A stretch of DNA of 27,542 nucleotides. It comes from a virus. The stretch lies in UHGV virus genome UHGV-0088497; one strand, written 5' to 3'. Of the stretch, positions 34 to 13,408 are shown piece after piece (position 1 is the first letter of the stretch; the number at the start of each line of letters is the position of its first letter). Below the pieces are notes generated by a model. That model was not told the DNA's origin and did not search any database. It saw nothing but the letters and a program-made list of their open reading frames with translations. The translations under genes were made by a program, and so were the position numbers.

Positions 34-255
34 TTAGGCGCAGCTATTTAGCACCTCATCAATCACATTCAACATATCAGCGAGAATGTAAGCTCTGTTC
101 CCGCCGTTAGAGTACTGGGTATCATGCTGCAGGTGTTCACGTATCTGGTGCAGGCGATCGACTGATACAGGACCGTTCGCCGGGTGGTTAGTTGTCATTG
201 AGCCTTTATTCATTACTGTTGTCCTCGCAGCAGTAGTGGCGTCCTTCTGGGTCAT
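34..255 (-). CDS. hypothetical phage early-region protein (73 aa)
   Basis: ORF in track; last gene of a same-strand chain of overlapping ORFs. Start uncertain: in-frame ATG at 213 (GAGG about 9 nt upstream, ATGAATAA overlap with upstream stop) or ATG at 198 are alternatives to 255. No recognisable motif. Confidence 0.4.
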   Translation of the reverse strand: MTQKDATTAARTTVMNKGSMTTNHPANGPVSVDRLHQIREHLQHDTQYSNGGNRAYILADMLNVIDEVLNSCA

Positions 256-475
256 CGGTTACAAATCCACACTCGCTACAGGTAAATTCATCTGGGGGAG
301 ATAAATCATCCTGACGGTTGTTATTACAAAAAGGATTACCATCACCGCCAGGCCACTCTTCAAGTTCGTCTTCACGCTGACAGTTCCGGCATAGGTCATT
401 GCCAGCCCACATATCCTCTTTGCATCGAGGGCAACGGTCTAAATCTTCATCTTTCACTGGCATCCCTCCTGGCAA
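206..475 (-). CDS. Cys-rich putative zinc-binding phage protein (CPRC...CRNC...CSEC)
   Basis: ORF in track with paired CxxC motifs. Codon at 475 is TTG; more likely starts are ATG at 463 or GTG at 457 (AGGAGG 7 nt upstream of the GTG). Confidence 0.5.
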   Translation of the reverse strand: MPGGMPVKDEDLDRCPRCKEDMWAGNDLCRNCQREDELEEWPGGDGNPFCNNNRQDDLSPPDEFTCSECGFVTDDPEGRHYCCEDNSNE

Positions 476-570
476 TCGTGGTTTTCTGGCTCATCGGCTT
501 TGTAATACCCGCCACAAACAGGGCAGATAACTAGCGGCGTCTCATCGTAATTTGAAGTTCCAGTAATCAT
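454..570 (-). CDS. small zinc-ribbon-like protein (38 aa, CPVC...C...GC), translationally coupled
   Basis: Hand translation of minus strand: MITGTSNYDETPLVICPVCGGYYKADEPENHDCQEGCQ. Its ATG (568-570) overlaps the TGA (567-569) of the upstream gene. Below the ORF-track length cutoff. Confidence 0.35.
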   Translation of the reverse strand: MITGTSNYDETPLVICPVCGGYYKADEPENHDCQEGCQ

Positions 571-821
571 TGTGCTGCTCCCTGTCTGGCTCTATTCAAT
601 AGCTGGTTAAACATCATGGTTAGGCTGTTACTGCACCCAAACGGCATATCGTTAACACGGTATGTTGGAATGCCCTTGCGAACACCTGACTTCACGATCC
701 GGCCTGTGCCATAGAGTTGCGATAATGCGCCAGCGACCGCGGGTGTCTTTTTGTTCATACCTTTGGCGATTTCACCGCTGGTGGTATTCGGATGAGCCTG
801 GAGATATTCAAATACGGTCAT
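567..821 (-). CDS. small winged-helix-like DNA-binding protein (84 aa)
   Basis: ORF in track; helix-turn-helix-like segment TSGEIAKGMNKKTPAVAGALSQL; basic C-terminus; ATGA overlap with the next gene. Confidence 0.5.
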   Translation of the reverse strand: MTVFEYLQAHPNTTSGEIAKGMNKKTPAVAGALSQLYGTGRIVKSGVRKGIPTYRVNDMPFGCSNSLTMMFNQLLNRARQGAAQ

Positions 822-994
822 GGCGTTTTACCTTTACGTTCCTGTTCCAGTTGCACCAGAGACTCTTTTAATGCTGCGAACGTAGCTTCCAGTCTGGTGG
901 CGACTTCGCGCATAAGCGGTGCATGCTTTGGTGGCAATTCAGCAACGGAGGCAAAAGCCTCAGCTACGAGTTCTTTTACCTTCATGCGGCGCAT
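818..994 (-). CDS. small hypothetical protein (58 aa), translationally coupled
   Basis: Hand translation: MRRMKVKELVAEAFASVAELPPKHAPLMREVATRLEATFAALKESLVQLEQERKGKTP. Sits between the stop of 982-1548 and the start of 567-821, with its TGA overlapping the ATG at 821. Confidence 0.35.
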   Translation of the reverse strand: MRRMKVKELVAEAFASVAELPPKHAPLMREVATRLEATFAALKESLVQLEQERKGKTP

Positions 995-1548
995 TGGCGC
1001 AGCTCCACCAGTTCGTTAAAGCGATTCATGAACAGGCCATAGGCTTGACCAGGGCGGAGAGGGATTACCTGAACGAGATCAGAGCAGGGAATACCTTCGA
1101 GAATTTCCCACTTCGAACCATCATCGATTTCCATATCACGGCGCTCGGTGGCTAACATGGTTAGATCGGCATATTTCACGACAGCAGCTTGTTCAAGTGA
1201 GATACCGAATTTAAAGCGGATAAGACCATCAACATAAGTTTCCATGCGCTGATAGTCAGGCAGCAAGGCTTTGAGCGGGGCTGGAATATCCTGGCAATAT
1301 GCCTCCGCAGCGTCGTGCATCAGCGCTTCAAAGGCGAACTCTGGCGGCACAATCTGGCTTACAAGCACAGAGTGCTGGGCCACACTGTAGAACTCTGGCA
1401 GATGCCCAGCGAATCGACAGATGTTGGAAAGCGCCGTCGCGATATCCTCAACATCGATATCGTCGATTGTGGCGGTCAGGTAGTTAAATTTTTTACCGCA
1501 TAATGTCTGAATGTAGCTCATGGTTTTCTCCATATTGGCGCGCTGCAC
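982..1548 (-). CDS. HD-domain phosphohydrolase (YfbR-like 5'-deoxynucleotidase fold)
   Basis: 188-aa ORF with HD-type metal-binding pattern (H...HD...D: AQHSVLVS, MHDAAEAY). Recognised from family memory, not searched. Confidence 0.6.
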   Translation of the reverse strand: MQRANMEKTMSYIQTLCGKKFNYLTATIDDIDVEDIATALSNICRFAGHLPEFYSVAQHSVLVSQIVPPEFAFEALMHDAAEAYCQDIPAPLKALLPDYQRMETYVDGLIRFKFGISLEQAAVVKYADLTMLATERRDMEIDDGSKWEILEGIPCSDLVQVIPLRPGQAYGLFMNRFNELVELRQCAA

Positions 1549-1675
1549 CGCGCAGATTTTGTTTGCACGAATCCCTCGCCAAAAGGCGAATAAAAGTTTG
1601 GGTTTCGTTTCAGTAAATGCCCCATCTATAGGTATTTAGCGCAACGGGTTGCTCCATCGTTATTATGCTGTTGTG

Positions 1676-1714
1676 TTAAATAGCTACCAAGATAGGTAGT
1701 GAGTAGCTATTTAA
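1676..1714. promoter_or_regulatory. perfect 12-bp inverted repeat TTAAATAGCTAC / GTAGCTATTTAA with 15-bp spacer (inner CTACC...GGTAG repeat) in divergent intergenic region
   Basis: Read directly at 1676-1687 and 1703-1714, between divergently oriented genes (1548 minus, 1774 plus). Likely a dimeric regulator site or hairpin. Confidence 0.4.
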
Positions 1715-1773
1715 CTACAGCAATGATTAGAGTAATCTGGATATCCTAATGTCTTTATTTTTAAGGTTTTTTT

Positions 1774-2259
1774 GTGGCTAGTGAAAAAAAATTAAAAATT
1801 CCATTCGATACCAACAAAAACTATTACAGTGGAATTCGTGGTGTTTTGAGCGGTATTGTTTGCTCTATGATCGGTGTTTATATTACCGGGCTATTTAGCG
1901 GAGCTATTAGTGTTGCTCAGATTTTTGAAATGCCAATAGTTATCATCAGTGCTTGGGTCGCTTTGTGTGCTTCTTTGTGGGCGATATCATATAAATTTGA
2001 AGATAGGGTTATATGCACATTTGGTCGTAATTGGGATTGTCCTAGAACAGCGAACTTTTTTTTATTTTTGCTTTACATAATGATAGGTGTCTTTTGTTCA
2101 CTTATATTCGAGGCCTTTCTGAAGGGGGGGGCCTCCCGCTCCTTATATGTTTCAATGGCGGGCTTTTTAGTTTTCTTACGACTTTTTTGTTTCTTCAGCA
2201 TTAAGAACTATGCTCAAATACAAAGCAAATCTGTTGATGAAACTAACCATGAAAAGTAA
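1774..2259 (+). CDS. AT-rich polytopic membrane protein (about 4 predicted TM helices), accessory gene beside the immunity region
   Basis: 161-aa ORF with GTG start at 1774 preceded by AAGG (1763-1766); four hydrophobic stretches; sequence visibly more AT-rich than flanking phage genes; contains a G8 tract (2124-2131) and a T8 tract (2056-2063). Confidence 0.6.
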   Translation: MASEKKLKIPFDTNKNYYSGIRGVLSGIVCSMIGVYITGLFSGAISVAQIFEMPIVIISAWVALCASLWAISYKFEDRVICTFGRNWDCPRTANFFLFLLYIMIGVFCSLIFEAFLKGGASRSLYVSMAGFLVFLRLFCFFSIKNYAQIQSKSVDETNHEK

Positions 2260-2291
2260 CCTGTATTAATAGGGTATCCAGATTGTTAAAG

Positions 2292-2318
2292 AGCGAAGCG
2301 TCCGATGGGCGCTTTTTT
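2292..2318 (+). terminator. putative intrinsic terminator (imperfect stem followed by T6)
   Basis: GAGCGAAGCGTCCGATGGGCGCTTTTTT shortly after the stop of 1774-2259; stem is imperfect. Confidence 0.3.
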
Positions 2319-2403
2319 GTTGCCTGCGAATCATCCGGTTATTCATATGCCACCGGCGGCTACTTCGTGGGCGTCCTGCCTGTTCGCTGTTGATGAATGA
2401 AAT

Positions 2404-2460
2404 CTAACTTAACTTAGCTTTGAGATCAAGAAAAAACACCAAACCATTCTTAGCTTGATG
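2404..2460. promoter_or_regulatory. OL-like operator repeats (CTAACTTAACTTAG; CTTAGCTT motif twice)
   Basis: CTAAC-N4-CTTAG at 2404-2417 and CTTAGCTT at 2413-2420 and 2449-2456 share the half-site seen in the cI/cro intergenic operators (3136-3203). Confidence 0.4.
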
Positions 2461-2483
2461 TTAAGAGGAAGGTTAGAGGTGGG

Positions 2484-3110
2484 TTAAAGTTCGTACTGAA
2501 CGCCTTTGACAACTCCGATAATCAGGCAATTACCGTTTATTGAAATGTTTGGATAGCGTGGATTCAAGGGAACTAAGAACTTTTGAGGCCCATCGATGAC
2601 GAGTTTTTTTACAGTAGCCTCGCTTGTCCCATCAAGCCTGGCTACGACTATCTTTCCATTAAATGGCTCTGCATCAGGATCTACTATGACCGTTGCCCCT
2701 TCTGGGATTGTGGGGAGCCCATTAGGGTTTGTCATCGAATCACCTTTGACCTCCAATGCAAAGGAGCTATCACCTATCCTGAGTGATGTTTCTACCCACT
2801 TATCTACTTCACTGAAAACTTCTGCTGCTTTACATTCTGTAAACTGTCCAGCCTGAACCCAAGATATCACCGGAATCCTTCGCATCTTGGTTATCAGATT
2901 CCCTTCGAATTCAGTGCCATAAAGTATGTAATCAATTGATGTGTTGAAATACTTTGCAAGTTTCGCAAGTGACTCACCGCCTGGCACATTAATGTCTTTT
3001 TCCCAATACCCAACCGCCACATCGCTAACACCACAGAACTTACCCAGTTCTTTCTGCGAGGTTTTAGTTATGCGCCTGAGAGCTTTGATGCGCTGACCGA
3101 CAGTTTCCAT
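2484..3110 (-). CDS. cI: CI-like prophage repressor (N-terminal HTH_XRE, C-terminal S24/LexA-like autopeptidase)
   Basis: HTH segment QKELGKFCGVSDVAVGYWE; S24 hallmark GDSM (Ser) with downstream Lys (KKLV). ATG at 3110 gives METVGQRIKAL; the ORF-track start at 3143 is TTG and unlikely. Divergent from the cro-like gene. Confidence 0.85.
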   Translation of the reverse strand: METVGQRIKALRRITKTSQKELGKFCGVSDVAVGYWEKDINVPGGESLAKLAKYFNTSIDYILYGTEFEGNLITKMRRIPVISWVQAGQFTECKAAEVFSEVDKWVETSLRIGDSSFALEVKGDSMTNPNGLPTIPEGATVIVDPDAEPFNGKIVVARLDGTSEATVKKLVIDGPQKFLVPLNPRYPNISINGNCLIIGVVKGVQYEL

Positions 3111-3133
3111 TTGAACACCATAAAAAATTAAAA

Positions 3134-3205
3134 GGCTAAGCAATCTTAGTTTTTATTGACCAAAGTTAGATTGGTTATTAATATCTAATCAAACTTAGCT
3201 AAGGG
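3134..3205. promoter_or_regulatory. OR-like operator/promoter region between divergent cI and cro (PR candidate -35 TTGACC 3156-3161, -10 TAATAT 3179-3184)
   Basis: Palindromic sites CTAAGCAATCTTAG (3136-3149), CTAATCAAACTTAG (3185-3198) and CTTAGCTAAG (3194-3203); sigma70-like hexamers with 17-bp spacing for the rightward promoter. Confidence 0.6.
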
Positions 3206-3211
3206 GGCATT

Positions 3212-3439
3212 ATGACAACCGATGATATTGAAAACTACTTCGGCAGTACTGAGAAAGTTGCCGAGTTTTTTGGAATCACAAGCGAGGCCGTTTACCAGTG
3301 GCGTAATAGAACTGGTCGCCTAATCCCGAAAGGACGTGCAGCAGAAGCAGCCTATCGGACTGGGGGAAAATTGGTTTTCCATCCCGACCTTTACGAAAAG
3401 CGTAGCGATGCTTCAGTAAAACTCAAACCACAGGAATAA
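3212..3439 (+). CDS. cro: Cro-like small DNA-binding regulator
   Basis: 75-aa ORF divergent from cI, SD AGGGGG upstream of ATG 3212, HTH-like segment FGITSEAVYQWRNRTG; position-typical. Confidence 0.65.
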   Translation: MTTDDIENYFGSTEKVAEFFGITSEAVYQWRNRTGRLIPKGRAAEAAYRTGGKLVFHPDLYEKRSDASVKLKPQE

Positions 3440-3449
3440 GGGGGGAGCT

Positions 3450-4344: not shown

Positions 4345-5209
4345 GAGCACTAAATTAACCGGCTACGTATGGGATGGTTGCGCGGCGTCGGGCATGAAGT
4401 TGTCTAGTGTCGCGATCATGGCTCGACTCGCTGATTTCAGCAGTGATGAGGGCGTATGCTGGCCGTCAATTGAAACTATTGCTCGCCAGCTTGGCGCAGG
4501 CCCGAGCACTATCAGAACGGCAATCGCAAAGCTTGAAAAAGATGGCTGGCTCACGCGTACACAGCGCCGTAATGGTAACCGTAATGCTTCGAACGTGTAC
4601 CGCCTGAATGTGGCGAAACTTCAGGCTGCCGCATTTTCTCAACTGTCAGATTCTGACACATCAAAATCTGACGCATCAAAATTTGACACCTCAAAAACTG
4701 ACCCGTCGAAATCCGGCAAAAACGGCGGTTTTGACCCGTCAGAATCTGGCGGGGATCCGTCAGTAAAATCAAAACAAGATCCACAAGTAACTTTAAAACC
4801 CTCTTGTCCGGTTGCGGCGCAACCCGACCCTGAGGTTGTGATTACTGATCAGGCCAGACAGGTTTTGTCTTACCTGAACCAGACAACTGGTTCACGCTAC
4901 CAGGTATGCAGCACGTCGCTGGAGAACATTCGCGCCCGTCTGCGGGAACAGTTCACTGTTGATGATCTGTGCCTTGTGGTGGATTACAAAAACGCTGATT
5001 GGCGTGATAGCGAGCAGGCTCAATACCTCCGCCCGGCAACTCTGTTTATTCCAAAAAACTTCCCCGGTTACCTGCAAAGCGCGACCAAATGGTCTGCCGC
5101 TGGGCGACCTGAACGCGTTAACGGTAAATGGGCGACTAACTCAGCCAGCCGCGCAAACTTCCAAAATGTTGACTATTCACTGCCAGAAAATTCGGGGTTC
5201 CGCTCTTGA
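4343..5209 (+). CDS. replication initiation protein (N-terminal wHTH, conserved phage C-terminal domain; functional analogue of lambda O)
   Basis: 288-aa ORF after the cII-like gene; N-terminal HTH (PSIETIARQLGAGPSTIRTAIAKLEKDGWL); internal iteron repeats within the linker coding sequence, as in lambda O. Confidence 0.75.
   Translation: MSTKLTGYVWDGCAASGMKLSSVAIMARLADFSSDEGVCWPSIETIARQLGAGPSTIRTAIAKLEKDGWLTRTQRRNGNRNASNVYRLNVAKLQAAAFSQLSDSDTSKSDASKFDTSKTDPSKSGKNGGFDPSESGGDPSVKSKQDPQVTLKPSCPVAAQPDPEVVITDQARQVLSYLNQTTGSRYQVCSTSLENIRARLREQFTVDDLCLVVDYKNADWRDSEQAQYLRPATLFIPKNFPGYLQSATKWSAAGRPERVNGKWATNSASRANFQNVDYSLPENSGFRS
4643..4775 (+). repeat. iteron array (ori-like): about six degenerate copies of CTGACNCATCAAAAT at ~15-bp period, followed by an AT-rich stretch
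   Basis: Read directly: ctgacacatcaaaat / ctgacgcatcaaaat / ttgacacctcaaaaa / ctgacccgtcgaaat / ttgacccgtcagaat / ccgtcagtaaaatcaaaa; encodes the repetitive SDSDTSKSDASKFDTSKTDPSKS peptide. Confidence 0.6.
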
Positions 5210-6525
5210 TGCCAAATAAATATTGCCAGGCGCTGGCAGAACTGCGCAGTAAACCAGCTCACGAATTGAAAGAAGTTGGAGATCAGTGGAGGACACCTGA
5301 TCTGCTTTTCTGGGGGATCAACGCGTTATTTGGCCCATTAGTTCTGGACTTGTTTGCTGACGACGACAACGCGAAATGCCCGGCATGGTACACCGCCGAA
5401 GATAACGCGCTGACCCAGGACTGGTCTGAACGTCTGGCAAAACTGGGTGGTGCAGGTTATGGCAACCCACCGTATAGCCGTTCGCAGTACCACGAGAAAC
5501 AGGCGATCACTGGTATGACGCACATCATGAAGTACGCAGCAGCCCAGCGCGAGAAGGGCGGTCGCTATGTATTCCTGATAAAAGCCGCGCCAAGTGAAAC
5601 GTGGTGGCCGGAAGATGCCGATCACATTGTATTCATTCGCGGGCGCATTGGGTTCGATCTGCCTGTGTGGTTTGTACCTGCTGACGAAAAACAGAAGCCC
5701 ACCAGCGCGTTTTTTGCCGGTGCCATAGCTGTATTCGATAAGTCATGGCGTGGTGAGCGGTTCAGCTATATCAACCGTACCGAACTGGAGGCAAAAGGGC
5801 GGGCGTTTATGACTTTGGCGCAATTTGCTGCCAGCAAGTCTCAACCTGCAACTGCCACACCATCTGTAGCTGACAAGCCAGAAGCAGAGTTGCCACTTAC
5901 CCAGAAAGATATTTTTGATATCAGCGGTGTCGAGGCGTGGGCATGCGTTAGAGCTGCGTTCGGCGATAAAGAAGAATACACATTTAGTGAATCGAAGTTT
6001 GGGCATACCTGGGCGGCGGATTCTGTCGAAGCACCGGAATTCACTCAGGTATCACCATTAACGATCGACAAAGCGAAGCTGCTTATTCGTGAGAGTATTT
6101 TGTTCGGTGTGGATGAGTGGCTGTTGTCGATTGAATTCGATGACGCTGCTGCGCGCCTGGATATGTCGGAACGTATTCGTACTGTTGCCCTTGAAGCATC
6201 TGGTGAATATGGCATGAACAGTACTGATTTCATTGCAGCTATGGGAAGCCTGGATGTTTCCAGTTGGTCCAATATTCGCCAGATCCGCATGCACATCCGT
6301 GAGAAAACTAAACCAGTATCGGATCCGCTTCCCGAGTCCCGTATCTGGCCGCTGGAGGTTGGAATTGTATTCGACCAGGTAGACGGCGCTGACATGCTGG
6401 ATGAATCACAGCAGAACAAGCTGAAAGCCAACATCAATCAACTCTGGCTGGAACGAACGGCCACCAGCGAAATCATTACTGCTGCTTCTGAACTTGTTCG
6501 CAATATGCGGGGAGAGGCCGCGTGA
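5209..6525 (+). CDS. phage Dam-family N6-adenine DNA methyltransferase (NPPY motif) with a ~250-aa C-terminal extension of unknown function
   Basis: GNPPY catalytic motif in the N-terminal ~190 aa; ATG at 5209 overlaps the upstream TGA; the C-terminal region has no motif I recognise. Confidence 0.7.
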   Translation: MPNKYCQALAELRSKPAHELKEVGDQWRTPDLLFWGINALFGPLVLDLFADDDNAKCPAWYTAEDNALTQDWSERLAKLGGAGYGNPPYSRSQYHEKQAITGMTHIMKYAAAQREKGGRYVFLIKAAPSETWWPEDADHIVFIRGRIGFDLPVWFVPADEKQKPTSAFFAGAIAVFDKSWRGERFSYINRTELEAKGRAFMTLAQFAASKSQPATATPSVADKPEAELPLTQKDIFDISGVEAWACVRAAFGDKEEYTFSESKFGHTWAADSVEAPEFTQVSPLTIDKAKLLIRESILFGVDEWLLSIEFDDAAARLDMSERIRTVALEASGEYGMNSTDFIAAMGSLDVSSWSNIRQIRMHIREKTKPVSDPLPESRIWPLEVGIVFDQVDGADMLDESQQNKLKANINQLWLERTATSEIITAASELVRNMRGEAA

Positions 6526-6968: not shown

Positions 6969-7608
6969 TATTGCGGATCTGGTTCAGAGTAAACACAGTG
7001 ACGTGAAACGCTCGGCTGAGCGTCTTGTTGCTGCGGGAATTTTAACCGCGCCATTGGCGCAGTTCGATTTTGAGCATAACGGTAATGTGTACCAGGAGTA
7101 TCGTTTTAACAAACGCGACTCTCTGGTGATTGTTGCCAGATTATCACCTGAATTTACCGCCGCGGTCGTCGATCGCTGGCAGGAACTGGAAGAAGGACAG
7201 AGTGTCAGTGTTCCCCGCTCATTACCGGAAGCGCTTCGCCTGGCTGCTGATTTAGCCGAGCAGAAAGAGCAACTGACGATCCAGCTGGCAGCCGCGGCGC
7301 CAAAAGTGGAGTTTGTTGATCGTTATTGCTCTGCAAAAGGCTCCATGTCATTCCGGCAGGTAGCCAAATTGCTTAACGCAAAAGAAACTGAGTTTCGTCT
7401 GTTCCTTATTGAACGCAATATCCTGTATCGCCTCGGCGGCACACTTACCCCCATGGCGCAGCACATTTCCGCGGGAAGATTTGAAGTTAAGACGGGAACA
7501 TCGAGCACATCCAATCACGCATTCAGCCAGACGCGTTTCACTGCCAAGGGAGTACGCTGGATTGGTGGTTTGTGGGCTGAACATATTGCAGGGGGGCAGG
7601 CGGCGTGA
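6922..7608 (+). CDS. Rha-family phage regulatory protein / antirepressor (Rha N-terminal domain plus ANT/KilAC-like C-terminus)
   Basis: N-terminus MSQLIVNGVVTMSSRDIADLVQSKHSDVKR matches the Rha pattern; GGAG 6 nt upstream of ATG 6922; C-terminal FRQVAKLLNAKETEFRLFLIERNILYR is ANT-like. Confidence 0.7.
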   Translation: MSQLIVNGVVTMSSRDIADLVQSKHSDVKRSAERLVAAGILTAPLAQFDFEHNGNVYQEYRFNKRDSLVIVARLSPEFTAAVVDRWQELEEGQSVSVPRSLPEALRLAADLAEQKEQLTIQLAAAAPKVEFVDRYCSAKGSMSFRQVAKLLNAKETEFRLFLIERNILYRLGGTLTPMAQHISAGRFEVKTGTSSTSNHAFSQTRFTAKGVRWIGGLWAEHIAGGQAA

Positions 7609-8600
7609 GGGCTTTGTTAACTCCTGAAGTCGCCCATCGCATGGGGATTGTGTTGTTTCGTCCCGGCGCGGAACTGATGCACCTCTTTATGCGTGGTCGC
7701 GTTTTGCTCGAGCCTGAACCAGAAGAAATGGCGTCATTCAGTACAGGAGCTGTTCCCGCCGCCATTCAGCCGCTGGCTGATGATCCGGTAATGCGGCAGG
7801 TCTTCGAGAATGATCGGGTTATTCAGCGTGCCGGTGGGCTTCCTTCCCTTGAGCAATGGTTGAGTACCCGGTTTGAATGCCAGTGGCCACATTCATCGTG
7901 GCACGATAAGAACTTCACAATAATGCGGCACCCACCAGGAAGTATTCACCTGTGCTGGCATTGCGATCACACTTTGTCGGGGCAACATACCGAACAGCTT
8001 GCAGGTATAGCGGCAGGAAACCTGGTATCCTGGATTCTGGAAGTCATTCGGCGTGATTCTGGTTTTCCCGAGTCGCATATCCTGACGCTTCCGGAACTGT
8101 GCTGGTGGATGGTCAGAAACGACCTGGCTGATGTTATTCCGGAAAGCGTTGCGCACAAGGGGCTACGCCTTCCGGATGAGAAGATCCGCTCGGTCATGAG
8201 GGAAAGCGATATTGTACCTTCCGTTTCTGCAACCAGCCTCGTGCAGGAGAAGGCGAAGAAGATCATCACGCTCTCTGTTGATCCGGAGTCTCCGGAATCT
8301 TTCATGCTCAGGCCAAAGCGACGCCGCTGGATAAATGAGACTTACACCCGCTGGGTAAAAACACAACCCTGTGAGTGTTGCCGACGGCCAGCAGATGATC
8401 CGCACCATATCGTAGGGCACGGTATGGGTGGTACAGCAACAAAAGCCCATGACCTCTTCGTGATCCCTCTGTGCAGAGAGTGCCACGACGAGTTACACGC
8501 CGATGTACCGGCATTCGAGCAGAAGCATGGTACGCAGCTTGAGCTGCTACTGCGTTTTATGGATCGGGCGCTGGCGATCGGTGTAATTGCGAAAGCTTAA
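7605..8600 (+). CDS. DUF968-like phage protein with C-terminal Cys/His-rich HNH-like zinc-binding motif (putative nuclease)
   Basis: 331-aa ORF; C-terminus CECCRRPADDPHHIVGHG...CRECHDELH; GTG start overlapping the upstream stop. Family names from memory. Confidence 0.55.
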   Translation: MRALLTPEVAHRMGIVLFRPGAELMHLFMRGRVLLEPEPEEMASFSTGAVPAAIQPLADDPVMRQVFENDRVIQRAGGLPSLEQWLSTRFECQWPHSSWHDKNFTIMRHPPGSIHLCWHCDHTLSGQHTEQLAGIAAGNLVSWILEVIRRDSGFPESHILTLPELCWWMVRNDLADVIPESVAHKGLRLPDEKIRSVMRESDIVPSVSATSLVQEKAKKIITLSVDPESPESFMLRPKRRRWINETYTRWVKTQPCECCRRPADDPHHIVGHGMGGTATKAHDLFVIPLCRECHDELHADVPAFEQKHGTQLELLLRFMDRALAIGVIAKA

Positions 8601-8617
8601 GTGTATGGAGAAAAGTG

Positions 8618-8983
8618 ATGCGTGATATTCAAATGTTACTTGAAAGATGGGGCGGGTGGGCTGCCAGTGATAGTTCTGGCGTGGACTATTCTCCTATAGC
8701 TGCAGGATTTAAGGGGCTGTTGCCGCAAACAGGTAGATCCCGACCGTCATGTACTGACGATGATGCGCTGATCATCGAAGGTTGCCTGGCGCGATTGAAA
8801 AGCCGGAAACCATATGAGCATTCACTGCTTGTAGCTCACTATCTGTATGGAATATCCAAGAGGAAGATCGCAAAAGTGCGTAAAAAAGATGAGAAATTGA
8901 TACGGATCGAGATACAGATGGCTGAGGGGTTTATTGATGGCTGCCTTTCAATGTTGGATGTAAGGCTTGATATGGATGAATAA
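8618..8983 (+). CDS. late-gene antitermination protein Q (Phage_antitermQ family)
   Basis: N-terminal RDIQMLLERWGGWAA and central AAGFKGLL...DDDALIIEGCLARLK...LLVAHYLYGISKRKIAK resemble Q-like antiterminators of Salmonella/E. coli lambdoid prophages; GGAG upstream. Confidence 0.7.
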   Translation: MRDIQMLLERWGGWAASDSSGVDYSPIAAGFKGLLPQTGRSRPSCTDDDALIIEGCLARLKSRKPYEHSLLVAHYLYGISKRKIAKVRKKDEKLIRIEIQMAEGFIDGCLSMLDVRLDMDE

Positions 8984-8989
8984 CTAATT

Positions 8990-9023
8990 GTTAACATTAT
9001 GCCCCGTGTAGGGGCCTAATGTT
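8990..9023. terminator. long imperfect hairpin (AACATTATGCCCC-GTGTA-GGGGCCTAATGTT) between convergent Q and the minus-strand cassette; tR'-like or bidirectional terminator candidate
   Basis: Inverted repeat read directly; no strong T-run, so function is uncertain. Confidence 0.35.
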
Positions 9024-9471
9024 ACAAGTGAGGGAAAATTCTACGCAGCACTAACCAACACCTACCAAATGTGCAAAGTGAAAGGAGCAGCGAAGACAAT
9101 CCTAACAGGAGAAATAAAAAATCAATTGGTTGAGCAAAGACCTTAACATCCTCTGGTAAGAACATAGCGATCAGTGGAAACAAGCAGGCCAAAATCAGCG
9201 TCAACCCTGTTGATAGCAAGCGATTTATCAATGTTGGTAATATATTATTCCTTTTGAGGGCGTTAATGGCCCCATCTTTGTCACTATCTGCGCTACTGAA
9301 TATAGATATAGCGGCGAGAACAAACCCAAAAAGAATTCCTGAAATTGTCGAAAGCACACCTGCTGTAGTTAACACATCAGCATGTTTCATAGGCTTAAAC
9401 AGTTTTGTCGCTGCATAAGTAATCAGAACTAAGAGGACCACTTTCCAAAAAAGAGTTAGAAATTCTCTCAT
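9022..9471 (-). CDS. small 4-TM inner-membrane protein (149 aa), second gene of two-gene accessory cassette (RexB-like architecture)
   Basis: Four hydrophobic helices; strong SD (AAGGGAGGA) upstream of ATG 9471, 18 nt after the stop of the upstream gene; AT-rich sequence. Confidence 0.65.
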   Translation of the reverse strand: MREFLTLFWKVVLLVLITYAATKLFKPMKHADVLTTAGVLSTISGILFGFVLAAISIFSSADSDKDGAINALKRNNILPTLINRLLSTGLTLILACLFPLIAMFLPEDVKVFAQPIDFLFLLLGLSSLLLSLCTFGRCWLVLRRIFPHL

Positions 9472-9489
9472 TTTGTCCTCCCTTTTGCG

Positions 9490-10437
9490 TTACTGGTTTT
9501 TTTTTGCAAGCTCATACTGTGCAAGGTAATTTGCATTATCAATTTTAGCAGATATCATCGCCGTCCTGATATCAGAATCAGAAGGATAGCCGCTTTTTAC
9601 TACTATAGTTTTCGAGCCTATGAGCACTTGATCAAGTAGGCTTTTTGGCGCTGTATCTGATGGTTCTGTTACATCAATTTTCTTGATGTTTAGCCCGCCA
9701 GAGCCTTTGGGGAATAGTTCAAGCAGTTCTTTAATAGCATCAGTAACTGATGATTTAAGATAGTTGAAGCCTGCTCTTTTGGGACGAATGCGACCGCGCA
9801 TGTTAAGTCTCAGGTGTGAACCGCCCATACCAACCACCATATCAATGATGTCATTAGTAAGGTCATTCTTAATCTGATAATTAGCTTTATTGAAATTTCT
9901 TGGCGCTGCGACAGTGAGGTCAAAACTGCGAAGGATGTTCCCATCTTCAAGAAGTTCCTTCATGCTCTCGTGCTTCCAGATAGCCTCGAATGTAACATTT
10001 TTCATTTGTGTCTTGTTGTACAGAATGAAAGATAAATCATTCACTTTGGGGCCTAAATGGTTGAGAGTCATTGCTAGTAAATCTGTTTCAAAGTAGTAAA
10101 TAAAATATGTCCGTTCTACTACTGAATCTTTATCGCTAAGCGGTATCGTTCGCTCGCTTCCTGTGGTGCCATCCTCGATAAAAGGTAAGAGACAATCACG
10201 CCTCCACGAGACATACCCAAAATAACTCTGCTGCTTATCATCCTTTTCAAGAATGACAAGTTTTAAACCGCGGTTTTGGGTTTCTGCTGTCACCACTAAA
10301 GGGAATGTAACCGGAGTCGTGTTTGTCATTTGCTCGAATGCAAGTTTCGCTGTAGACAGACCGTCTTTTTTACTTCCATTTCCAGTGAAAAAGCCAACTC
10401 TTACGCGACGAGTTTTCTTCTTATCTTCTGTAGTCAT
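9490..10437 (-). CDS. soluble 315-aa protein of unknown function, first gene of two-gene accessory cassette (RexA-like position)
   Basis: Long AT-rich ORF with no catalytic motif I recognise. ORF-track start at 10443 is TTG; ATG at 10437 is more likely. Confidence 0.65.
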   Translation of the reverse strand: MTTEDKKKTRRVRVGFFTGNGSKKDGLSTAKLAFEQMTNTTPVTFPLVVTAETQNRGLKLVILEKDDKQQSYFGYVSWRRDCLLPFIEDGTTGSERTIPLSDKDSVVERTYFIYYFETDLLAMTLNHLGPKVNDLSFILYNKTQMKNVTFEAIWKHESMKELLEDGNILRSFDLTVAAPRNFNKANYQIKNDLTNDIIDMVVGMGGSHLRLNMRGRIRPKRAGFNYLKSSVTDAIKELLELFPKGSGGLNIKKIDVTEPSDTAPKSLLDQVLIGSKTIVVKSGYPSDSDIRTAMISAKIDNANYLAQYELAKKNQ

Positions 10438-10675
10438 TATCAATCCGATGAGAATTTCTGATAAACGGACGAAAAATACTATAAATAATTGAGAAGATCA
10501 TTAGCGCGGTCCGCAAAAAGTGATGTAACGTGTTAAGAGTGGTTACTTGGTCACATTGCTTAATCATCAAATTCAGCTTCTGAGTTTTGTTTTAACGATG
10601 CTTGATTGTGCGACTTATCTCTCTGAAACTTATCTTCTTTTCCTTGACTATGAATTTTCTATCTAAGGAGGTTCT

Positions 10676-10924
10676 ATGTTGGGAGTGTGTTCTTGTGGTG
10701 GTAGGCTTGATGAGTCGCAGTATTCCACCGATAGCCTAGGTAATACGTTCAAATCTTGTCCAAGATGTACGCAGATTTCCGGGCATCACGTTTTCTATCT
10801 TATTGAGGAGTTTGGCGAGAGGGATATGGGGGATGGCAGAGTTATAGTGCAACCATATTGCCCATCGTGCAGAAACTACCAAGAAAGATCATTAGTTCCT
10901 GCGTTTGAGTGCAGTGGTTCATGA
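10676..10924 (+). CDS. Cys-rich zinc-ribbon protein (CSCGG...CPRC...CPSC), 82 aa
   Basis: ORF with strong SD (AAGGAGG, 10663-10669) and a canonical intrinsic terminator immediately downstream. Confidence 0.6.
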   Translation: MLGVCSCGGRLDESQYSTDSLGNTFKSCPRCTQISGHHVFYLIEEFGERDMGDGRVIVQPYCPSCRNYQERSLVPAFECSGS

Positions 10925-10942
10925 TCACAACATTCAATATAA

Positions 10943-10966
10943 GACCACCTTCGGGTGGTTTTTTTA
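10943..10966 (+). terminator. Rho-independent terminator (ACCACC-TTCG-GGTGGT followed by T6)
   Basis: Perfect 6-bp GC-rich stem with tetraloop at 10944-10959 and a T-run at 10960-10965. Confidence 0.8.
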
Positions 10967-11088
10967 TGACAAATCAGACATGCGCGGCGCGTAAAGGCGC
11001 TGGTGGTCGCAGAATGGAATTCTTCTCTTGCTGGTGAAGCCAACCAGAGTTATCTGTATGTCACTCTAATTGTTTAAGGGTAAAAGGC

Positions 11089-11280
11089 ATGCTAAATCAG
11101 CAAGATATGACAGAAACCGCGAAGGCTGTTTTCAATGAGTTAAGCGATAAACCAGCATCGGTTGGGGAGATTGCACAGAATACCCACCTCAGCCGCGAAC
11201 GTTGCCAACTCATACTTACGCAATTGGTGATGGCGGGATTATCTGACTACCAGTTCGGATGTTATAAGCGTTTCCAGTGA
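11089..11280 (+). CDS. small hypothetical protein (63 aa), possibly DNA-binding
   Basis: ORF in track with AAAAGG upstream; short helix-rich sequence; no firm motif. Confidence 0.4.
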   Translation: MLNQQDMTETAKAVFNELSDKPASVGEIAQNTHLSRERCQLILTQLVMAGLSDYQFGCYKRFQ

Positions 11281-11410
11281 TATGTTTTTTTGCACTATGT
11301 GAACTGCATCAACAGTTTAGTTTTTTCTTATTTCTGGCTTAAAAATAGTTTTTGACATAACTCTTTAGCTATTAAGATTTTTTACCTTATCAACTTGATA
11401 GAGGTGAAAA

Positions 11411-11743
11411 ATGAGTGTTGAAAATTATGAAATTGCTTTAAATGATGTTGACCCAACTAACCTGGGTGCGGTTAAAGACTTATTGGAGACACACTCCCAT
11501 CTTTTCAATGACTATTTTCTAGCCGGTTATGGCGGTGATGCCCGATACTCCGTTATTGATGGCTCATTTGAAGTTATCGGTATTGGAGATGGTTTTTTTG
11601 AGTATGAGGTTGGGATTGATTTTTTTGCTGGTTGCTCAGATATGAACGATACCCACGAAGACTCTGGGATACTTGAATATGAAGTTAGAGATGGAAGTAT
11701 TCACATTGAAGTGGATGAAGCTGTCTGGAGAGTAGACAATTAA
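11411..11743 (+). CDS. strongly acidic small protein (110 aa)
   Basis: SD GAGGTG upstream of ATG 11411; many D/E and few K/R (large net negative charge); immediately upstream of a DNA methyltransferase gene. Confidence 0.55.
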   Translation: MSVENYEIALNDVDPTNLGAVKDLLETHSHLFNDYFLAGYGGDARYSVIDGSFEVIGIGDGFFEYEVGIDFFAGCSDMNDTHEDSGILEYEVRDGSIHIEVDEAVWRVDN

Positions 11744-11933
11744 TTCCCGCTTACTGATCCTAATCGCGCCGCTATAAATGGTTTGGCGGCTTTCTGCTGT
11801 GGAAATGGGCGGCTGGTGGGTGTTAGCGCACCCAGTCAGCCATCAGCTCATGCTTTCAGGTCACAAGCTAACCAAGGCCCACTGCTTTAGCGCAAAAGCA
11901 ACGTGAGCCTATCAGAGTTACGCTTACTGATCT

Positions 11934-12986
11934 ATGAAAAATACTGTAAAAATAAACAGGGTTGAGTTAATCAACGCTGATAGCCTGCATTACGTCGCCA
12001 CCCTCCCGGATAACTCTATTGATCTGATTGTTACGGATCCTCCGTACTTCAAAGTGAAGCCTAACGGCTGGGACAACCAATGGAAGGGGGACGAGGACTA
12101 CTTACGCTGGCTTGATAGCTGCCTGGCTGAGTATGCTCGCGTTCTTAAACCTGCTGGCAGCATCTACCTGTTTTGCGGTCACCGACTGGCCTCAGACATA
12201 GAGATTATGATGCGTACCCGGTTCAAAGTTTTGAATCACATCATTTGGGCAAAACCATCGGGCCGCTGGAATGGATGTAACAAAGAAAGCCTGCGTGCGT
12301 ACTTTCCATCTACGGAACGGATTTTGTTTGCTGAGCACTATCTTGGGCCGTACACAGGTAAAGAGGATGTTTACGAAAGGAAAAGCACAGAGCTAAAGCA
12401 GCACATTATGACGCCGCTGATTGATTACTTCCGTAATGCCCGTGAATCACTGGGAGTCAGCTCGAAAGAAATAGCTGAGGCAACCGGAAAGAAAAACATG
12501 GCGTCACACTGGTTTGGTGCAAGCCAATGGCAACTACCAAATGAAGTGGACTATAGAAAATTGCAGGAACTGTTCACGCGGATCGCTATCGATAAGCACA
12601 TTCAGCAGAAGCTTGAACATCCTCACCACCAGCTGGTAGCCACCTATCAGTCATTAAACCGCAAGTATTCAGAATTGCTGGAGGAATACAAAACCCTCCG
12701 GCGCTGCTTCTCTGTTTCCGCTTTTGTTCCGTATACCGACGTATGGACGCATAAGCCTGTTCAGTTTTATCCAGGCAAACATCCATGCGAAAAACCTGCC
12801 GACATGCTGAAGCAGATCATTAGCGCCAGCAGCAGACCGGGGGATATCGTTGCCGATTTCTTTATGGGCTCTGGTTCAACTGTGAAAGCTGCAATAGAAC
12901 TTGGTCGTCGGGCGATCGGCGTAGAACTGGAAACCGACAGGTTTATTCAGACCACCGAAGAGGTGGAAAAACTCAACAAAACATAA
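11934..12986 (+). CDS. beta-class DNA methyltransferase (motif IV DPPY before motif I FxGxG), N6-adenine or N4-cytosine specific, no adjacent restriction gene seen
   Basis: VTDPPYF near the N-terminus and DFFMGSGST near the C-terminus give the beta-class motif order. Confidence 0.8.
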   Translation: MKNTVKINRVELINADSLHYVATLPDNSIDLIVTDPPYFKVKPNGWDNQWKGDEDYLRWLDSCLAEYARVLKPAGSIYLFCGHRLASDIEIMMRTRFKVLNHIIWAKPSGRWNGCNKESLRAYFPSTERILFAEHYLGPYTGKEDVYERKSTELKQHIMTPLIDYFRNARESLGVSSKEIAEATGKKNMASHWFGASQWQLPNEVDYRKLQELFTRIAIDKHIQQKLEHPHHQLVATYQSLNRKYSELLEEYKTLRRCFSVSAFVPYTDVWTHKPVQFYPGKHPCEKPADMLKQIISASSRPGDIVADFFMGSGSTVKAAIELGRRAIGVELETDRFIQTTEEVEKLNKT

Positions 12987-13129
12987 CGATCATCACGCTC
13001 CCTGTTGCTGTGGTGATCACCATTTTCAGGCACCGGGAATCATCCTTACTTTTAGTTGAACAAAAGAGCCCGGTTGCCTGATCCCCTCCAATCACACACA
13101 GCGCCATCCGAAAAATCGGAGGTGAGGCT

Positions 13130-13408
13130 ATGACCAGAATGAGCACCATTTACAGCAGACTTTCATATGGATCAGGAACCACGCTTGCCGGCTGCGGTGT
13201 ATCAGCGAAGGCATATGCCGAAACAGCCAAAACAGCAAAAGAGGTGTCCTGGATGTTGGCCGACAGAATTGCAGGGTTAAGCCTGAGCGACTGGGCAATT
13301 ATTGTCGGTATCGCATGCACAGTTATCACCTGTGCAGTGAACTGGTATTTCCGCTGGAAAGAACGGGAGGATCGGCGCAATGGCTATGCCACCAAAGCTG
13401 AAGAATAA
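13130..13408 (+). CDS. class II holin (pinholin, phage-21 S21-like) with dual-start motif (M-T-R-M)
   Basis: C-terminal TM2 and basic tail (WAIIVGIACTVITCAVNWYFRWKEREDRR) resemble S21; Gly/Ala-rich weakly hydrophobic TM1; GGAGG 7 nt upstream of ATG 13130 and a second ATG at 13139. Confidence 0.75.
   Translation: MTRMSTIYSRLSYGSGTTLAGCGVSAKAYAETAKTAKEVSWMLADRIAGLSLSDWAIIVGIACTVITCAVNWYFRWKEREDRRNGYATKAEE

Follow-up and report, generated by a model that had tools for sequence, protein, structure and literature searches.

A highly acidic orphan protein encoded by a moron cassette between Q and the lysis genes of lambdoid prophages

The virus genome UHGV-0088497 is considered here over a stretch of 27,542 nucleotides (nt), referred to as the window, which is a segment of a lambdoid prophage and includes lambda-type terminase genes. 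Within it lies an open reading frame (ORF) encoding a strongly acidic protein of 110 amino acids (aa). An initial annotation had assigned this ORF to a cargo island and interpreted its product as a candidate DNA mimic, comparable to Ocr and ArdA, which would form an anti-restriction module with the DNA methyltransferase gene that follows. The cargo setting is borne out, as the gene is located between the late antiterminator gene Q and the lysis genes. The gene is carried on a short insertion of its own, and the methyltransferase belongs to a separate unit. The features of the locus are listed in Table 1.

The protein contains 14 Asp and 11 Glu residues vs one Lys and three Arg, so the large excess of acidic over basic residues first reported is confirmed (25 vs 4). 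Calculation of the isoelectric point (pI) and net charge, which had been proposed as a check, gives a pI of ~4.05 and a net charge of ~-21 at pH 7. The window has 46 ORFs of 90 aa or more, and this one is the most negatively charged, at -0.19 per residue vs -0.13 for the next in rank. The GC content of the ORF is 39% vs 51% for the window, and it shares its sequence with no other ORF of 40 aa or longer, whichever frame is read. The Shine-Dalgarno sequence that had been attributed to it is present. The ratio of nonsynonymous to synonymous substitutions (dN/dS) is 0.09-0.34 in eight pairwise comparisons, indicating purifying selection. As homologues also maintain a length of ~110 aa across 22-95% identity, the ORF is a genuine gene. 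Neither a signal peptide nor a transmembrane segment is visible in the protein sequence.

Table 1. Features of the acidic-gene cassette and of its surroundings in the window
Feature	Position	Strand	Remarks
DUF968 gene	7605-8600		
Late antiterminator Q	8615..8983	+	PF06530, 1.7e-53
Moron cassette, 502 bp	11282..11783	+	In window, absent from syntenic E. coli Nissle 1917 prophage; edges good to ~10 bp
Conserved promoter-like block	11336..11378	+	A-rich tract ttaaaaa; TTGACA 11352-11357; 15-bp spacer; TAAGAT 11373-11378
Shine-Dalgarno sequence GAGGTG	11401..11406	+	4 nt 5' of ATG; relatives have AGGTGG or GAGGTG there
Coding sequence of acidic 110-aa protein, PHROG 13663 member	11411..11743	+	ATG start; ORF, profile and selection evidence
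Terminator-like hairpin	11768..11795	+	RNAfold; 7-bp stem 11768-11774 / 11784-11790, 9-nt loop, then TTTCT
Methyltransferase leader, 150 nt	11784..11933	+	97% identical in Nissle 1917 and 47 other E. coli genomes without the acidic ORF
N6/N4 DNA methyltransferase, orphan, separate cargo unit	11934..12986	+	PF01555, 3.5e-44; PADLOC MTase_II, 4.6e-142
Holin, start of lysis cassette and 3' limit of cargo slot	13130..13408	+	PF16080, PF04971

The limits of the insertion are given by comparison with a prophage of E. coli Nissle 1917 (locus L043). Window positions 10929-11281 align to this prophage at 86% and positions 11784-13200 at 96%, with nothing aligning between them; the acidic gene therefore lies on a 502-bp insertion. 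The order in the Nissle prophage is a gene for a 63-aa protein, the methyltransferase leader, the methyltransferase, the holin, the lysozyme and a DUF2514 protein, with no cassette. Klebsiella phages have Q and the terminator that follows it in common, and their homology ends where the cassette starts. A total of 32 related loci, taken from assemblies and IMG/VR, were compared. In every prophage locus the acidic gene is found downstream of Q, which belongs to either of two unrelated families, PF06530 and PF03589. The low GC content is also seen in the other prophage loci, where that of the ORF is 34-42% vs 47-54% for the loci.

The intergenic DNA upstream of the gene contains a conserved promoter-like block. 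An A-tract, T/CTGACA, a 15-bp spacer and TAAGAT, TAATAT or TATGCT are kept in loci both with and without the methyltransferase, and the block persists among relatives with only 45-50% identity at the protein level. A 27-nt pattern derived from the block, TAAAAANNNTTTYTGACATAAYYSTTT, has nine matches in IMG/VR, all nine in contigs known to carry the acidic gene. In the GTDB species-representative genomes the promoter pattern gave two chance matches only, in AT-rich genomes. The block is a putative promoter. Its identity as the late promoter pR' was rejected, as the block follows two unrelated Q families, lies 3' of a terminator and is 2.4 kb from Q in the window.

Downstream of the gene, a terminator-like hairpin is predicted. 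In loci where the holin gene comes next, a GC-rich hairpin with a T-run directly follows the stop codon, with a predicted free energy (dG) of -14 to -22 kcal/mol; in these relatives it takes the form AAGGCCTC-loop-GAGGCCTT followed by T6. The hairpin of the window occupies the same position, is weaker and was left unflagged by a consensus scan. The upstream intrinsic terminator, the promoter-like block and the downstream terminator occur together in ~20 loci.

The acidic gene lies directly 5' of the holin gene in these ~20 loci, in the E. coli branch and in the prophage locus L007. This position has a possible meaning in lysis timing, in which the product of the first late gene before the lysis cassette, co-transcribed with the holin gene under Q antitermination, would bind the basic cytoplasmic tail of the holin and act in the manner of an antiholin. 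However, a strong intrinsic terminator separates the two genes, and the holin families vary (PF16931 with PF05449, a P21-like holin in the window and another in E. coli). Cargo of 1-4 kb separates the gene from the holin in the window and the Klebsiella loci, chromosomal copies of the gene have no holin nearby, and the slot is a general hotspot for cargo. A function in lysis timing is thus very unlikely.

The methyltransferase gene starts 190 nt 3' of the acidic ORF. The description of the acidic gene as immediately upstream is a little loose, as the hairpin and a separately conserved leader of 150 nt lie between the two genes. This leader is part of the methyltransferase unit and lies outside the cassette. 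It is also conserved in the Klebsiella loci and contains an extended hairpin, GGCGGCTGGTGGGTG...CGCACCCAGTCAGCC. An Rfam scan of the cargo region, including the leader, gave no match. The leader may have a regulatory role for the methyltransferase. As the holin follows the methyltransferase directly and other prophages contain the same methyltransferase among different neighbours, its earlier designation as an orphan is reasonable.

The methyltransferase is present in 11 of the compared loci and absent in ~20. Where it is present, in Klebsiella, Citrobacter and Salmonella relatives of at least 70% identity, the order is Q, the 63-aa gene, the acidic gene, the methyltransferase, cargo and holin. 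In the ~20 loci of 44-52% identity, the order is Q, an intrinsic terminator, the acidic gene, a strong terminator and holin, and no methyltransferase is found within 6 kb of the acidic gene. The layout without the methyltransferase is also that of the E. coli branch (33% identity), found in 131 of 5,426 complete genomes, and of a 23%-identical relative, where the gene again follows Q. Conversely, 48 complete E. coli genomes contain the methyltransferase and its leader but lack the acidic gene.

In favour of a functional module, the two genes are neighbours and share their orientation, both in the window and in the relatives from Klebsiella, Citrobacter and Salmonella; the weak hairpin between them in this clade makes partial co-transcription conceivable. 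The pairing is, however, not conserved in either direction. Each gene is found without the other, in the Nissle prophage on one side and in the ~20 loci and the chromosomal copies on the other, so on these genomic comparisons the pairing is clade-specific. The coherent module of the initial annotation does not survive this comparison, and the adjacency within the Q-to-holin slot reflects a shared insertion hotspot. The cassette is best described as an autonomous accessory unit that is not obligately coupled to the methyltransferase, a description to which a probability of about 0.9 is given.

The acidic protein belongs to a family that is real but rare and unannotated. Its sole match in the profile libraries is PHROG 13663, of which it is a full-length member (E 4.1e-31, residues 3-108 vs positions 4-110 of the 111 in the profile). 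The function of this group is not annotated, so membership is uninformative on function. Pfam, NCBIfam and PADLOC scans of the protein gave no match, and a Pfam scan of 55 family members at E up to 1 returned scattered noise in single members only. A sequence search of the PDB with two profiles (A1 and A3) gave only noise (E of at least 0.2), and literature searches by accession, PHROG identifier and topic returned nothing on the family. A word-indexed search of 5.8 billion proteins recovered 15 clusters of relatives, and an exhaustive profile search of 1.84 billion representatives recovered 46. Almost all are 106-124 aa long and they are named ‘hypothetical protein’ in every source.

Among proteins of 1,000-2,000 aa that matched the profile in several stretches, P0033, a repeat-rich exoprotein secreted by the two-partner secretion (TPS) route, and P0034, a compositional oddity, were rejected as spurious. 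P0046 and P0051 were set aside on the assumption that they are similar.

The negative charge is conserved in the family. Fetched members of ~106-174 aa, including all the full-length ones of ~106-148 aa, have net charges of -4 to -23; the charge is lower in two shorter fragments. The one invariant residue named is W106, with F32 and C75 nearly so (C75 in 96%), while conservation is strong at D43, R45, D77, N/D79, D/E102 and E103. At position 28 the members have either Asn or His.

The gene is associated with prophages and, in a diverged form, with bacterial chromosomes. A tblastn search of 50,697 GenBank phage records gave no match to the window protein or to a 48%-identical relative. Among 72,556 plasmids searched in the same way there was one match, in a non-mobilizable, prophage-like record. 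The gene occupies the phage slot there, after a DUF968 gene and before the holin, and Q is not annotated in that record. In the GTDB species-representative genomes the protein patterns used gave no relative.

Diverged homologues located outside prophages (22-30% identity, profile E 1e-24 to 1e-27) are found in the chromosomes of Cronobacter, Franconibacter and a third lineage, known from a Joint Genome Institute (JGI) metagenome contig. An Atlantibacter-labelled homologue also exists. The chromosomal site is fixed (loci L033-L039, ~5001-5330), after ydbH-ynbE-ydbL (DUF1318) and before azoR and hrpA. The chromosomal copies have a GC content of 54-57%, which has drifted close to the 57-60% of the genomes, and each has its own terminator. 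In C. sakazakii the homologue is very widespread, being present on roughly 2,000 contigs or more. The chromosomal copy seems to stem from a long-past domestication of the phage gene, or else to be the source of that gene. Its vertical retention without a neighbouring partner suggests a stand-alone action of the protein on a target that is widely conserved. The neighbours of the most remote homologues (L040, L041, L044 and L045) are without annotation and thus uninformative.

This distribution is relevant to a role of direct benefit to the lysogen. The protein would then be an orphan immunity protein against a basic nuclease toxin, such as a colicin, a contact-dependent inhibition (CDI) toxin or a type VI secretion system (T6SS) effector, or a decoy for a DNA-binding protein of a superinfecting phage. 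The occurrence of the mobile gene in prophages only, and never in sequenced phage isolates, is consistent with such a role, and the chromosomally fixed versions imply a benefit at the level of the cell. The promoter-like element of the cassette and the terminator shielding the holin also suggest Q-independent expression. On the other hand, no cognate toxin is located nearby in any locus, the Pfam immunity families gave no match across the 55 members at E up to 1, and there was no PADLOC match. A lysogen-benefit factor of this type is therefore unlikely, while retaining some weight.

The structure was predicted with AlphaFold2. With 16 sequences the mean predicted local distance difference test score (pLDDT) was 77, and with 55 sequences it was 90, with a predicted template modelling score (pTM) of 0.77. 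The elements of the model are a strand at 3-9, helices at 18-27 and 29-38, and strands at 46-48/54-59, 62-73, 78-93 and 96-102. The protein is taken to be cytoplasmic and is modelled as a single-domain α+β protein with two helices on one face of a twisted antiparallel sheet. The columns of strands 2-5 are by turns hydrophobic and rich in Asp and Glu (the latter at 54, 64, 66, 89, 91, 100 and 102), which would give the sheet one acidic, solvent-exposed face. In the model, the hairpin loops at 57-60, 82-85 and 94 carry extra negative charge, so that most of the surplus carboxylates are found in these loops and on the sheet face away from the helices. A polar pole is formed by D43-x-R45 beside G74-C75-x-D77-x-N79, adjacent in the register of strands 2, 3 and 4.

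Among the best fold neighbours are ligand binders and enzymes of the NTF2-like type, and the folds considered closest are α+β rolls of the cystatin, NTF2 or VirB8-like kind. Z scores stay below 6, so the protein is not placed in a fold family. The NTF2-like neighbours, together with the nearly invariant Cys75 and the conserved D43, D77 and N/D79, are compatible with a binder or sponge of a small molecule or metal, or with a small enzyme, in which the helices and the curved sheet would enclose a pocket with a Cys75/Asp43/Asp77/Asn79 site. Phage sponges for immune signalling molecules, such as Tad1, Tad2 and Acb2, are likewise small single-domain proteins. Nevertheless, at 110 aa and with two helices the protein is smaller than typical NTF2 cones, and a ligand pocket leaves the large conserved negative charge unexplained. 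The alternation of Asn and His at position 28 also speaks against a catalytic His. A ligand-binding or enzymatic function is accordingly regarded as highly improbable.

Comparison with DNA mimics gives a mixed picture. Similar to Ocr (T7 gp0.3) and ArdA, the protein is small and cytoplasmic, has a pI of ~4 and a large negative charge, and its gene is part of a mobile element. In the Pfam and PDB searches its sequence resembled neither of them. Ocr is all-helical, mimics bent B-DNA as a dimer and inhibits type I restriction-modification or BREX, whereas the acidic protein is modelled as an α+β domain of five strands and two helices. ArdA is an elongated protein of 166 aa with three domains, in contrast to the single compact domain of 110 aa. 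Ocr is expressed early, from one of the first genes that enter the cell, whereas the acidic gene lies 3' of the late antiterminator Q and 5' of the lysis genes. ArdA is encoded in the leading region of conjugative plasmids and transposons; the acidic gene is not found there, its one plasmid occurrence being the prophage-like record. The parallel with Ocr and ArdA drawn initially therefore extends to charge only, the other defining features compared being different.

Ugi, AcrIF2, AcrIIA4 and HI1450 are solved DNA mimics that are small, acidic and α+β. The acidic protein is similar to these (HI1450/YciU included) in size, in its antiparallel sheet with packed helices and in its acidic exposed surface. 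More generally, the conserved excess of Asp and Glu that is expected of DNA mimics is observed, with acid-rich columns at the exposed positions of the modelled sheet. A comparison with DNA-mimic folds had been recommended; the model is beta-rich, and no match to a solved mimic was obtained.

An Ocr- or ArdA-like anti-restriction protein acting with the adjacent methyltransferase would thus have in its favour the strong and conserved acidity and the existence of several solved mimics of this build. Against it are the lack of a sequence or fold match to any of these mimics and the location in the late region 3' of Q, anti-restriction being needed among the early genes. The absence of the gene from the 50,697 phage records and from conjugative plasmids also opposes this role, and the vertical chromosomal copies of Cronobacter and related genera fit poorly with a purely anti-host-restriction function. 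Taken with the unconserved pairing, these points make such a module decidedly unlikely.

The locus conforms more closely to the moron concept (Juhala/Hendrix), examples of which in lambdoid phages are lambda bor and lom, HK97 gp15 and, in the Q-S slot, stx. As with these, the acidic cassette forms a discrete insert separating genes that are neighbours in related phages. It has a deviant GC content and contains a predicted promoter-like element and a predicted terminator-like hairpin. The Q-to-holin slot which it occupies is the one in which stx is located in Stx phages. The difference lies in the product, which is outside the known moron-encoded families. The acidic gene is therefore a lambdoid prophage moron with a small acidic product, an orphan accessory protein of temperate phages.

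A mechanism can be proposed on this basis. The gene would form a self-contained prophage moron, a 0.5-kb cassette of low GC content between Q with its terminator and the lysis genes. In the lysogen, the protein would be expressed from the promoter of the cassette, and late in lytic growth Q-dependent read-through would raise expression to a high level. The protein would act stoichiometrically on a basic partner, probably a protein that binds nucleic acids, and would serve as its electrostatic decoy or as its inhibitor. The acidic face of the sheet would occupy the nucleic-acid-binding surface of the partner, and the conserved polar pole (D43-x-R45 and G74-C75-x-D77-x-N79) would supply specificity. 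In this role the protein would work independently of the adjacent methyltransferase.

For the mode of action, a cytoplasmic stoichiometric binder of a basic partner, a probability of about 0.4 is estimated. Several observations weigh against the proposal. Acidity alone is a weak predictor, since many small acidic proteins are not decoys. The nearly invariant Cys75 and the cluster of Asp and Asn residues could signal ligand or metal binding. The promoter-like element has a non-optimal spacer of 15 bp, and as a result the block was not called by the consensus scan. Finally, the 9-nt loop and interrupted T-tract of the window hairpin may allow some read-through into the methyltransferase.

A more far-reaching version of the proposal is that the family represents an unrecognised fold class of acidic decoy, mimicking DNA or protein. 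It would spread among enterobacterial prophages as a minimal moron of promoter, gene and terminator, domesticated near-ubiquitously in Cronobacter and Franconibacter. Its target would be a basic DNA-binding protein that is itself conserved and is put out of action by the decoy, for example a nuclease of a defence system, a nucleoid protein or a factor of a competitor phage. A new family of defence or anti-defence proteins, with a structural solution of its own, would then be defined. This version is speculative and is considered rather unlikely as a whole. If a decoy for a defence nuclease or other DNA-binding protein is indeed encoded, the family would be a structurally new addition to the few protein DNA mimics and anti-defence factors.

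At present, the gene is a well-delimited orphan of 110 aa on a 0.5-kb cassette and not a demonstrated anti-restriction system. Its interest lies in its clean limits, its strongly conserved charge, the confident structural model and the domesticated chromosomal branch. The mobile prophage copies and the domesticated chromosomal copy offer a natural contrast. The locus also provides a lesson, in that adjacency to a methyltransferase in the Q-to-holin slot is explained by an insertion hotspot, not by a functional module.

The remaining contents of the slot in the window are as follows. A palindromic GC hairpin, aacattatGCCCCgtgtaGGGGCctaatgtt, is located at 8984-9025, right after the stop codon of Q. 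It is likely a bidirectional terminator, serving Q and the convergent genes of the minus strand. These genes, co-oriented and placed directly after Q, encode a membrane-like protein of 149 aa (9022-9471, minus strand; phrog_8552) and a protein of 317 aa (9490-10443, minus strand; phrog_7651). Neither belongs to a Pfam or NCBIfam family, and PADLOC gave only a weak match to PDC-M67A (E 0.003). They may be an uncharacterised defence or exclusion pair. An ORF of 82 aa at 10676-10924 (plus strand; phrog_7682) has a zinc-ribbon-like CxxC...CxxC arrangement and recurs in the close relatives L014 and L015. After the holin, the window encodes a lysozyme and a DUF2514 protein.

The 63-aa ORF upstream of the cassette (11089-11280, plus strand; phrog_331) encodes a winged-helix protein (DprA_WH, E 8e-5). 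It accompanies the methyltransferase in prophages of E. coli, Klebsiella and Citrobacter, with or without the acidic gene, and may regulate the methyltransferase. An arrangement of an anti-CRISPR with an Aca partner was considered for the acidic gene and this ORF. It was rejected, as the 63-aa gene is located upstream, is found with the methyltransferase in prophages without the acidic gene and is absent from loci without the methyltransferase.

The Q-to-holin slot is a general cargo hotspot, containing TciA, Panacea toxin-antitoxin genes and the methyltransferase in relatives. In the Klebsiella prophages L001-L006 the slot (~7990-10400) contains a SocA_Panacea gene with a 159-aa partner, resembling a toxin-antitoxin pair, and an NMT1_3 fragment. 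It also contains a TerB-like gene of 141 aa, which is annotated as TciA in Klebsiella phage 1 LV-2017. Elsewhere in an acidic-gene prophage without the methyltransferase, locus L007, positions 158-3449 encode a helix-turn-helix (HTH)/Peptidase_M78 protein and an Avs-like NACHT/NB-ARC protein of 624 aa; both genes are located 5' of a DUF1367 gene, NinG and Q.
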